Below are positions 24,055 to 43,892 of a stretch of DNA of 64,000 nt, one piece after another; positions within the stretch are counted from its first letter, which is position 1; the number at the start of each line of letters is the position of its first letter. The notes beneath the pieces are model-generated. The model made no database searches. It was not told the origin of the DNA and worked only from the letters and a program-made list of their open reading frames with translations. The stretch covers positions 960-64,959 of IMG/VR virus record IMGVR_UViG_3300048904_000123; one strand, 5' to 3'. The stretch comes from a virus. Both the position numbers and the translations under genes were made by a program.

Positions 24055-24387
24055 ATGCGAATCATGAAGCCGGTCATCTGGCTCCCGCGTGTTGCGGGAA
24101 ACAACTCCGACGAGGGAGTGCGGGACTTTCGTCCGGCCAATAACCTCGACGAGGCGACCATCGTTCCTGCTCCGGTGGAGCCGGTGGTCCTGTCGCAGGA
24201 TGCGGTGGTGGAGGAGGGGGACCCAAAAGCCTCATCTGCTCCGGAATCTGTCGTCAACTCGCAGCCCGTAGTGGTGACGCCGACTTCCCCGTCGGTCGTC
24301 CCGGAGGTGCCTGCAACTGTGGCGAAGGTCAAACTGACCCATCCTTCTACGAACCCTGGGAGCGAGACGCTGCCTGTAGTGGAGTAG
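24055..24387 (+). CDS. Hypothetical P/V/S-rich protein; candidate frameshift partner of WhiB
   Basis: SD AGGA; contains an in-frame C-CCA-AAA at 24222-24228. Confidence 0.55.
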   Translation: MRIMKPVIWLPRVAGNNSDEGVRDFRPANNLDEATIVPAPVEPVVLSQDAVVEEGDPKASSAPESVVNSQPVVVTPTSPSVVPEVPATVAKVKLTHPSTNPGSETLPVVE

Positions 24388-24566
24388 CCCTCATCCAGAC
24401 GCGCGGCGGCAAGAACGATATGTTCTTTCCGCCGCCCGGAAAAGAGGATGAGGCTATCGCAAATTACTGCTTCAACTGCACCGTGCGTGCGCAGTGCAAA
24501 GATAAAGCTGATCGCCTCGGTATCGACATCGGTGTGTGGGGCGGCGAGAGGAGGAAGCCAGACTAA
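24222..24566 (+). CDS. whiB: WhiB-family Fe-S regulator in the -1 frame of ORF 24055, with no start codon before Cys1
   Basis: Hand-translated WERDAACSG...DMFFP...CFNCTVRAQC...GVWGG (core 24357-24566); frame open from TAA 24141 with no ATG/GTG/TTG until 24420. Confidence 0.8.
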   Translation, partial: PKSLICSGICRQLAARSGDADFPVGRPGGACNCGEGQTDPSFYEPWERDAACSGVALIQTRGGKNDMFFPPPGKEDEAIANYCFNCTVRAQCKDKADRLGIDIGVWGGERRKPD

Positions 24567-25723
24567 TGGACCCATACTCATTCAGCGCTACGTCGCTGCA
24601 GGTTCACGAGAAGTGTCCGGCCCGATACAAGGCTGAGTACATCGATCGGGGCGCAAACTTCCAGGGCACTGCGGCGAACGTCGGCATCGTGTGTCACGGA
24701 ACTCTCGAGGACTTCCTGCGTGCGGTGTTCATCCGCAAGGATAAGCCATGGGACGAGACGGTCTTCTGGGAATACTTTCACCAGCACTCGGACGCTGTGC
24801 TGGGGCCGGACCGGACGACCGAGCTGTACAAGGACGCACGCGACCTGTGCTTCAAGTGGTACCACACCAAGGGCCGCTACGAAGACCTGTCGAAGGTGAA
24901 GATCCTGTCCCTCGAATCCAAGAGCAAGTTCGAGATCAAGACGAGCCTGGGCATCAAGCCTGTCAACTACATCATGGACAGGCTGGATCAGATCGGCCCG
25001 GAAGAGTACCGCATCGTGGACTACAAGTCCAACCGGGTCGCGCTCAACGAGCGACAGCTTCGCAAGAAGCTTCAGGCCAGACTGTACTCGCTTATGGTGC
25101 AGATCAAGTACCCGAAGGCCGAGCGCATCTGGGTGCAGTTCGAGTTCCTCCGCCACGGGCAGGTCGAGGTGCTGTTCACGCGACAGGACAACATCGACAC
25201 CTATCGCGAGTTGCAGCGGCGAACCGAGGAGATCATCAACACCCCAGACAACCGGGTGCCCGAGGTGCTGAACGACGAGTGCGGATACTGTGTCCGCAAG
25301 GCTAGCTGCAAGAAGCTGCAGTCCAACATCGCGGTCGGCGGCGTATTCAGCAAGACGCCGGAGGAACTGGCGAAACTGCACTACACCCTGACGAGCCAGA
25401 GGAAGGCGCAGGAGATTGCGCTCAACGAGATCGAGGACCAGCTTCTTCAGTACGCACTCAAGGAGGAGCTGACCGAGTTCGACCTCGGCGAGACGCACGT
25501 AGACATCAAGCTGCCCGTGCGTCGCAGAGTCGATACCGACATGGCCGCGATCATTCTCGAGAACAACGGACTCATCAGCGAGTTCCGTCGGTTCTCGGTG
25601 ACTGATCTGGATCGGATCATCAAGCAGAAACTGATGCCGGAAGATCAGATCACGCTGCTCAAGCTGTGCCTCATCAAGGAGCACGGCGACCCGACAGTGA
25701 AGGTGGATCACAGTGGAAAGTGA
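24566..25723 (+). CDS. Cas4/RecB-like PD-(D/E)XK exonuclease
   Basis: SATSL...CP, G..CH..LE, MDRLD, IVDYKS, CGYC-x5-C; TAATG coupling. Confidence 0.85.
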   Translation: MDPYSFSATSLQVHEKCPARYKAEYIDRGANFQGTAANVGIVCHGTLEDFLRAVFIRKDKPWDETVFWEYFHQHSDAVLGPDRTTELYKDARDLCFKWYHTKGRYEDLSKVKILSLESKSKFEIKTSLGIKPVNYIMDRLDQIGPEEYRIVDYKSNRVALNERQLRKKLQARLYSLMVQIKYPKAERIWVQFEFLRHGQVEVLFTRQDNIDTYRELQRRTEEIINTPDNRVPEVLNDECGYCVRKASCKKLQSNIAVGGVFSKTPEELAKLHYTLTSQRKAQEIALNEIEDQLLQYALKEELTEFDLGETHVDIKLPVRRRVDTDMAAIILENNGLISEFRRFSVTDLDRIIKQKLMPEDQITLLKLCLIKEHGDPTVKVDHSGK

Positions 25724-43011: not shown

Positions 43012-43293
43012 CTAATGCCGTCGTCCTCGCCGAGAACCTTCGCGCTTGCGTTTAGCTTCTTCTTGCCTACGCTTCGATTCTTCGGCTTCCTGTTTCCGAG
43101 CTTCTTCTTCGTCCATCTTCCTGAAGATGAACTCGAACTTGTCCAGTAGATCGGGGTCTTGGTCGTACAGGCCCCCGGCCACGGGGAGGTGATTCCACTT
43201 CATATTGCGACAGAGTGAAAACAATCTGATCGCATTATGCGGGCCGGTGACTGCTTCTCCCTTGACCCATGCTTCTACTTGGAGCTGAAATTT
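43012..43293 (-). CDS. Tail assembly chaperone frameshift extension (gpT-like)
   Basis: -1 frame KFQLQVEAW...LYDQDP entered at slippery A-AAT-TTC (plus strand 43287-43293). Confidence 0.8.
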   Translation of the reverse strand, partial: KFQLQVEAWVKGEAVTGPHNAIRLFSLCRNMKWNHLPVAGGLYDQDPDLLDKFEFIFRKMDEEEARKQEAEESKRRQEEAKRKREGSRRGRRH

Positions 43294-43847
43294 GCCTCTT
43301 CCGCCTCGCGCTTCTCGGCGGCGACGCGCAGCTCCTGAAGGTCCGCGATCTCCTTGTCGATCTGCTCGACCGTCATCTCGTTGAGCAGCCAGGGGTTGTA
43401 CTTGCGGATCGCCTTCTCGAGCGAACCCAGAAGCTCCGGGTTGGCCTTGTTGATCCACTGCCCGACCACACCGCCCTTGCCGCTGTTCGGGTTGAACGGA
43501 ACGAACTGGGGAGTGCCGGTCACGAAGCTCACGATCAGCCAGTCGGTGATCGACGCGAGCAGAAGCTCCATGCGGTCGCCACCCTGGTCGAACGGGATGC
43601 GCGCCTCGCCGGACTTCTGGTTGAGGTGCACGTCGGAACGCGTGGCCTTCAGGTACTTGGCCCGGTCGCCCTCGGTGAGCTTCTTGAACTCGATCCACTG
43701 CTTGCCGTCCGGGAAGTACCACTTCTCCTTCTCGTCGAAGGCGAAGTAGTTCTCGAACCCGTTGAACGGGTCGGCCGACTGGGCACCGGTGTTGATCTGG
43801 TCGGGTGCGACGTAGGAGTCGCCGCCGCCTGCGGAGATGGGCTGCAT
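43275..43847 (-). CDS. Tail assembly chaperone (gpG-like)
   Basis: Between tail tube and tape measure; X-XXY-YYZ heptamer near the 3' end. Confidence 0.85.
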   Translation of the reverse strand: MQPISAGGGDSYVAPDQINTGAQSADPFNGFENYFAFDEKEKWYFPDGKQWIEFKKLTEGDRAKYLKATRSDVHLNQKSGEARIPFDQGGDRMELLLASITDWLIVSFVTGTPQFVPFNPNSGKGGVVGQWINKANPELLGSLEKAIRKYNPWLLNEMTVEQIDKEIADLQELRVAAEKREAEEANFSSK

Positions 43848-43892
43848 GTCAGTAGGGCCTCTCGTGTCCTATGCGACTTTAACTTACAGGGT

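Follow-up and report, generated by a model that had tools for sequence, protein, structure and literature searches.

How can a WhiB protein be made from a reading frame that offers no start codon ahead of its first cluster cysteine? The question is raised by a locus in an uncultivated phage genome of 73,216 bp with direct terminal repeats (IMG/VR record IMGVR_UViG_3300048904_000123), of which 64 kb were analysed; this stretch of DNA is called the window below. A WhiB domain is encoded there in the -1 frame of a short upstream open reading frame (ORF), ORF 24055 (Table 1). The proposed answer is that the locus represents one recoded gene, its WhiB being produced by a -1 slip of the ribosome at the heptamer C_CCA_AAA. 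A probability of about 0.87 is given to this reading from sequence comparison. It is carried by the slippery site itself, by the conservation of the site among relatives, and by a change of coding constraint from one frame to the other. Tandem -1 slippage at an X_XXY_YYZ heptamer would be the simplest way to account for them.

The preliminary description of this DNA had placed a complete WhiB core in the -1 frame of ORF 24055, and all positions given in it proved correct. This frame matches the Pfam family Whib (PF02467) with 40.4 bits (cut-off 23.6, E-value 4.3e-10), a significant domain that bears out the placement; a Pfam scan of the whole genome gave 41.2 bits for WhiB. The PHROG WhiB families also match the -1-frame protein. 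In the family alignment, C50, C81, C84, C90, G102, W104, and G106 are invariant, matching the cysteine pattern of the cluster, C...CxxCxxxxxC, and the G[VI]WGG turn. Between a TAA at 24141-24143 and the TAA at 24564-24566, the -1 frame is free of stop codons, its open part beginning at 24144. As originally described, no ATG, GTG, or TTG occurs between the stop at 24141 and Cys1 (TGT 24375-24377), and the earliest ATG in this frame (24420) is located 3' of Cys1. Four additional cysteines, likewise recognized before, are present in two motifs, named A (CSGIC) and B (CNCGEG). The claim that the usual basic C-terminal helix is missing was roughly right: only ERRKPD follows GVWGG in the window, and the tails of relatives comprise 1-15 residues after this turn, mostly short and basic. 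The lack of a start codon extends to the relatives. A canonical start 5' of motif A was found in none of 14 loci, and in eight of these loci none precedes Cys1 of the WhiB domain.

Conservation was inspected in 29 genomes or contigs: 14 GenBank isolates (Mbo2, RobinSparkles, Damp, Amore2, GMA7, TIN4, ReqiDocB7, Katyusha, Diabla, Trogglehumper, Jumbo, GMA3, Monty, and Camerico), nine isolates as IMG/VR copies, four uncultivated virus genomes (UViGs), one Logan contig, and the window. GTE7, TIN2, Hotorobo, Woes, Gmala1, and Orchid belong to the further isolates and IMG/VR copies. The isolates represent at least eight phage genera with the hosts Gordonia, Rhodococcus, and Tsukamurella. In 29 of 29 cases, the upstream ORF has the WhiB domain in its -1 frame, and none of the homologs encodes it in a single continuous ORF. 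Each locus holds exactly one phased X_XXY_YYZ heptamer in the 60 nucleotides (nt) before the conserved Cys motif, so that both frames and the heptamer are kept. C_CCA_AAA is situated 15 nt and C_CCT_TTA 9 nt 5' of motif A. A third type, A_AAA_AAA, occupies the homologous place in the Logan contig (L015, SRR30464895), which was recovered by an unbiased HMMER search. The four UViGs (L053, L054, L055, and L059) were recovered with a pattern containing the heptamer and therefore show breadth, not independent conservation.

A protein of 170 amino acids (aa) from the Logan contig (P0011, L015 9-521) was considered as an in-frame fusion of the Cys4 module, formed by motifs A and B, with WhiB, and was rejected as a gene-caller artefact. 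The caller had run up the open -1 frame, and the first ~58 residues are an Arg-rich read of the wrong frame. The DNA rules the candidate out: the true frame-0 ORF starts with MDGMSGDFRP and is joined at A_AAA_AAA, which is phased on that ORF.

A tblastn search with the -1-frame protein found 137 phage records. In 110 of these, the match extends over at least 80% of the protein and takes in motif A and the extra cysteines. The records covering these cysteines belong to phages of Gordonia, Tsukamurella, and Rhodococcus; the matches from Mycobacterium phages comprise the WhiB core only. Relatives are too diverged for blastn, which gave no match of the locus to phage records. A related-locus search with the protein of the window gave no match in IMG/VR or metagenomes, and a word-indexed protein search gave none either. 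A HMMER search of 1.84 billion representatives yielded mainly plain WhiB cores. A metagenome scan with a GMA7-type profile retrieved only ordinary WhiBs lacking motifs A and B, which served as negative controls.

The alignment of the fused products shows conserved blocks in both frames. The frame-0 block is an N-terminal P-[VI] ... DF[RT]P motif, and the frame -1 blocks are motif A, motif B, and the WhiB signature (W..A.C, D.FF, C..C.V...C, G.W.G). The frame-0 segment of the window carries its copy of the family motif P-V ... DFRP as VRDFRP. A conserved insert of ~45 aa (TAFQ.H..QTAF ... TAFELE) between DFRP and the heptamer was observed in loci of the GMA7, TIN, Monty, and Katyusha type (e.g. 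L004 953-1213); the window and the C_CCA_AAA group are without it. Ratios of nonsynonymous to synonymous substitution rates (dN/dS) were calculated by frame after Nei-Gojobori. For Monty and Woes, frame 0 had a dN/dS of 0.11 5' of the heptamer, and frame -1 had one of 2.14. The values were 1.08 and 0.44 in the overlap, and about 10 and 0.04 past the frame-0 stop, respectively. Jumbo, GMA3, and Gmala1 gave 1.27 in frame 0 and 0.56 in frame -1 for the overlap, and 1.30 and 0.18 downstream. A cross-genus set followed the frame pattern of Monty and Woes. The heptamer thus marks the point where constraint leaves frame 0 and takes hold of frame -1, in line with a frameshift. The frame-0 tail evolves neutrally, and its sequence is not conserved among relatives. 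Nucleotide variation in motif A falls on third positions of frame -1.

The point of entry into frame -1 is narrowly defined in RobinSparkles, Jumbo, and GMA3. There, a stop codon of the -1 frame is located 0-1 codon 5' of the heptamer, which confines the entry to the heptamer itself. Within each heptamer type, the frame-0 wobble bases of both slippery codons are invariant. The codon before Pro encodes varying residues (D, A, N, R, or T), its third base always being C. These observations bear on internal initiation, in which the Shine-Dalgarno (SD)-like element GGAGGAGG would serve as a real ribosome-binding site, and ribosomes would begin the Cys4-WhiB protein at a non-canonical codon of frame -1 near the heptamer, without dependence on the upstream ORF. 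SD-like sequences are indeed enriched just 5' of the site, and some members possess an ATC (Ile) few codons 5' of motif A. Yet no near-cognate start codon is conserved, which also speaks against the non-canonical start named as an alternative in the preliminary description. In the C_CCT_TTA group, nothing but CCC-TTT-AGR precedes the first Cys, and the spacing from the SD-like element to the ATC would be at least 17 nt in the window. Initiation within the gene leaves unexplained why a phased heptamer is invariant while its three types are interchangeable, and why the synonymous frame-0 sites of the heptamer do not vary. Moreover, frame -1 upstream is unconstrained (dN/dS 2.1). Internal initiation is considered improbable.

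Slightly less probable still is transcriptional slippage, by which RNA polymerase would gain or lose a base in an A or T run and a part of the mRNAs would contain the two frames as one. The A7 run of the Logan contig is long enough for some realignment of the polymerase, but the run is only A4 in the window and only T3 in the C_CCT_TTA group. For efficient transcriptional slippage, a run must comprise about 6-9 bases or more. What is conserved is the phased X_XXY_YYZ pattern, not the length of a run.

An indel had also been named as an alternative, as had a pseudogene; the indel would stem from sequencing or assembly, and the pseudogene would be decaying. The window originates from a metagenome assembly, probably of a root sample, and homopolymers (G5 and A4) flank the site. 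A separate Logan assembly of the probable source run contains one contig of 67 kb that spans the region with no differences and no gaps, at a word depth of ~12x. More than 100 isolate genomes, sequenced independently, have an equal frame offset, and frame -1 shows dN/dS values of 0.04-0.44. The conservation, the substitution ratios, and the identical sequence from an independent assembler exclude this explanation for practical purposes; it is the least credible of those weighed.

Public annotations treat the locus as two separate genes, an upstream gene labelled 'endonuclease' or 'hypothetical' and a short WhiB from an internal ATG or GTG (24420 in the window). Gene callers and curators have decided in this way, and a 48-aa ORF from 24420 is present in protein databases (P0001). 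Damp, Diabla, and Monty are annotated with a 33-aa 'WhiB', and the annotated WhiB of Mbo2 starts after Cys1. No WhiB is annotated in Amore2, GMA7, and TIN4, which show a gap instead. None of the isolates fetched has an annotation joining both frames. Short WhiB products of this kind have only 33-67 aa, and in the window, Damp, Diabla, Monty, and Mbo2 they are without Cys1 of the iron-sulfur (Fe-S) cluster. Two genes explain neither the purifying selection on frame -1 5' of the internal starts nor the invariant motifs A and B, and the upstream ORFs lack a Pfam domain backing the name 'endonuclease'. The two-gene arrangement is very improbable, although an indel or pseudogene is less probable again. 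The 'endonuclease' label itself stands in RefSeq and PHROG 6890, for the frame-0 ORFs in the records of GMA7, Katyusha, and Monty (L004/L005/L008/L013). No Pfam domain at E <= 0.1 was found in the frame-0 ORFs of six representatives, and from the sequences the label looks like a propagated error.

The preliminary description had proposed C_CCA_AAA as the site of a programmed -1 frameshift and pointed to an SD-like element 5' of it; heptamer and element were both confirmed, and the comparative tests support the proposal. In the recoded gene, ribosomes would initiate at ATG 24055 and read 58 codons in frame 0. At C_CCA_AAA a fraction of them would slip one base back, the tRNA-Pro of the P site changing its pairing from CCA to CCC and the tRNA-Lys of the A site re-pairing from AAA to AAA. 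Slipped ribosomes would read frame -1 up to the TAA ending at 24566, yielding a fusion of ~170 aa that combines the N-terminal peptide with the DFRP motif, the Cys4 module, and the WhiB Fe-S domain. The predicted junction peptide is ...EEGDPK|SLICSG.... Ribosomes that do not slip would terminate at the TAG ending at 24387, and their product of 110 aa would have an unconstrained, low-complexity tail. The frameshift efficiency would set the amount of the fusion.

Two elements may stimulate the slip. The first is a pause on a rare A-site codon. In 17 large genes of the window, AAA accounts for 42 of 530 Lys codons (8%) and TTA for none of 856 Leu codons. ARAGORN detected no tRNA gene in the window. 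Together with the rare codons in the A site, this makes it plausible that ribosomes pause on a 'hungry' codon. The second is a pairing of GGAGGAGG with the anti-SD sequence of the translating ribosome, as in dnaX. The duplex of the GGAGGAGG region with the 16S 3' end has -12.5 kcal/mol and ranks in the top 0.9% of 18-nt windows between 20 and 30 kb. In 13 of 13 lineages, the anti-SD pairing of the 18 nt 5' of the heptamer beats 78-99.4% of the windows from the same locus (median top 3.4%). The site itself is hardly a chance occurrence: CCCAAAA is present once on both strands of the window, compared with 3.3 expected occurrences, and phased XXXYYYZ heptamers number only 13 in the 11,063 codons of the 17 large genes.

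Several points weigh against the frameshift as described. Six of the C_CCA_AAA loci are a biased sample retrieved by a heptamer-containing pattern. The SD-enrichment statistic counts related lineages as independent, and its combined p-value is therefore only indicative. A conserved downstream hairpin or pseudoknot was not found: single-sequence z-scores ranged from -2.2 to +1.6, and RNAalifold predicted 0 pairs 3' of the heptamer in the C_CCA_AAA group and -4 kcal/mol in the C_CCU_UUA group. In E. coli reporter surveys, the most efficient heptamers are not known to include those ending with AAA or UUA. Finally, the GC content at third codon positions (GC3) agrees with the frame switch outside the overlap and is not decisive inside it. 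In the window, frame 0 has a GC3 of 0.78 5' of the heptamer, against 0.39 for frame -1. The overlap has 0.68 in frame 0 versus 0.53 in frame -1, a composition still resembling frame 0 although the substitutions show frame 0 to be unconstrained there.

The C-terminal part of the protein is predicted to fold as a WhiB-like (Wbl) protein. An AlphaFold2 model reached a mean predicted local distance difference test (pLDDT) value of 76, with about 78-83 for the N-terminal Cys4 module. All of 15 Foldseek matches in the PDB are Wbl proteins (WhiB, WhiB3, WhiB1, WhiB7, and WhiB6), with TM-scores by target of 0.41-0.65 and a best E-value of 7e-3. The Cys4 module (CxGxC ... CxCGxG) is probably a metal site; an Atlas feature search with it gave no lead (best score 0.75). 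By analogy to solved Wbl proteins, the fusion would probably dock on region 4 of the host primary sigma factor and redirect early or replication-phase transcription. Modelled docking to region 4 of Mycobacterium smegmatis SigA gave a weak score of 0.53, the best control reaching 0.01. The docking mark is reached by 51 of 78 solved complexes and two of 108 mismatched pairs, and passes at up to 0.60, regarded as weak, include five of the 78 solved complexes and all four passing mismatches. The SigA runs agree in at least 84% of the contacts, with a partner pLDDT of at least 72. Since similar complexes have been solved, memory of them may account for the pass. It weakly suggests a likeness to such complexes and is no proof of binding. 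The preliminary description had inferred that recoding sets the dose of a WhiB that is possibly a sigma-binding decoy; such a decoy role is speculative.

A wider role of the frameshift, as a physiological sensor, is unlikely, though less so than any of the rival explanations. Both common heptamers may be understood as putting the rarest codons of the host, AAA or UUA, in the A site; UUA is the bldA-type codon of actinomycetes. With a rare A-site codon, a shortage of the tRNA that reads it would increase the yield of the WhiB fusion, and the level of a sigma-binding Fe-S regulator may thereby be coupled to the growth state of the host. The Cys4 module may then provide this Wbl subfamily, and no other, with a second site for metal or redox chemistry. 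The DFRP motif is also present in the non-shifted product, which may compete with the fusion for one partner.

The surroundings of the gene are summarized in Table 1. AGGA is located 6 nt 5' of ATG 24055. The 3' neighbor encodes a PD-(D/E)XK (Cas4-like) nuclease beginning at ATG 24566, and GGAGG lies 11 nt 5' of the TAATG overlap. The ORF listing proposes GTG 24536 as start of the nuclease; ATG 24566 was judged likelier. Phage Damp possesses TAGTG as analogous overlap. From its sequence, the overlap looks like a translational coupling of the nuclease gene to the -1 frame, and it fits ribosomes arriving in that frame. Synteny is kept among the relatives, with a methylase or RusA resolvase followed by the short ORF, WhiB, and a Cas4/RecB-like nuclease. 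The same phage has a further, canonical phased -1 heptamer, A_AAT_TTC (43287-43293, minus strand), in its tail assembly chaperone pair. The chaperone ORFs (43275-43868 and 43012-43848, minus strand) are located upstream of a tape measure gene of 1,688 aa. A_AAT_TTC is situated five codons before the stop of the first chaperone ORF, and the -1 frame runs on to 43012.

Table 1. Coordinates of the proposed recoded WhiB locus and adjoining features, numbered from the first base of the window.
Feature	Position	Strand	Remarks
N6/N4 DNA methylase	23329-24036		Gene 5' of ORF 24055
ORF 24055	24055-24387	+	110 aa, no Pfam domain; stop TAG 24385-24387
Frame-0 segment	24055-24228	+	ATG 24055 to A-site codon of the heptamer, 58 codons
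Shine-Dalgarno-like GGAGGAGG	24210-24217	+	Ends 4 nt 5' of the heptamer; putative stimulator
Slippery heptamer C_CCA_AAA	24222-24228	+	X_XXY_YYZ phase; frame-0 codons gaC CCA AAA
Predicted frame -1 continuation after the slip	24228-24566	+	112 codons and TAA 24564-24566
Frame-0 tail of the non-shifted product	24229-24387	+	52 codons, rich in Pro, Ser, Val, and Thr
Cys motif A, C-x-G-[IVA]-C (CSGIC)	24237-24251	+	Invariant across the family
Cys motif B, C-x-C-G-x-G (CNCGEG)	24312-24329	+	C29, C31, G32, and G34 invariant in the family alignment
WhiB (Wbl) domain	24357-24548	+	Cluster Cys 24375, 24468, 24477, and 24495; GVWGG turn
TAATG overlap	24564-24568	+	Stop of the WhiB frame and ATG of the nuclease share one base

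A canonical recoding mechanism in a new place and a new WhiB subfamily are supported by these comparisons. The available portions of the literature on actinophage frameshifts, including the papers on GMA7, GTE7, Katyusha, and Gordonia, contain only tail-chaperone cases and no WhiB frameshift. If the proposed reading holds, the locus represents the second family-wide recoding event of actinobacteriophages, beside the tail-chaperone frameshift, and the first one concerning a transcription factor of the Wbl type. Corrected annotations would follow for more than 100 deposited phage genomes, in which 33-aa 'WhiB' fragments, unsupported 'endonuclease' labels, or gaps stand at present. A new Wbl architecture would be added, consisting of DFRP motif, Cys4 module, and WhiB. 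The system is readily testable, since SEA-PHAGES isolates and Gordonia terrae 3612 are available. It could show how recoding doses a regulator of host takeover and how slippage proceeds in high-GC bacteria without downstream structure.

Among known systems, the OrfAB fusions of the IS3 family of insertion sequences (IS911 and IS150) offer a close parallel. In both systems, a -1 slip at X_XXY_YYZ joins a short first ORF to a second frame lacking its own start, and the functional domain is reached only via the fusion. An upstream SD-like stimulator is present in some members. The heptamer of insertion sequences is A_AAA_AAG, mostly followed by a hairpin or pseudoknot, whereas the loci described here use C_CCA_AAA, C_CCU_UUA, or A_AAA_AAA, and no conserved structure was found. 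The IS3 product is a transposase, the predicted product here a phage transcription factor. Escherichia coli dnaX, encoding tau and gamma, shares the canonical heptamer, the upstream internal SD stimulator, and two products with a common N-terminus. The slip in dnaX truncates the protein and is helped by a strong downstream hairpin, while the slip proposed here would lengthen the protein by its main domain. The SD-like element ends ~4 nt before the heptamer in the window; the distance in dnaX is about 10 nt. The phage tail chaperones G/GT (lambda G_GGA_AAG and its actinophage equivalents) are likewise conserved phage -1 frameshifts, and theirs is to our knowledge the only recoding event routinely annotated in actinophages. 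Their slip site is near the end of the upstream ORF, whereas the WhiB site is located mid-ORF with an overlap of ~50 codons, and the gene classes differ. With the Wbl proteins, such as WhiB1, WhiB3, and WhiB7 of Mycobacterium tuberculosis, WhiB of Streptomyces venezuelae, and the WhiB of phage TM4, the protein has in common the four-Cys Fe-S motif, FFP, G[VI]WGG, and the predicted fold. Binding of sigma-A region 4 may be a further common trait, as the docking weakly suggests. In contrast to these proteins, it has no start codon of its own and a very short basic tail at the C-terminus, and it carries an N-terminal extension with the DFRP motif and an extra Cys4 module, which is absent from the ordinary WhiB controls.

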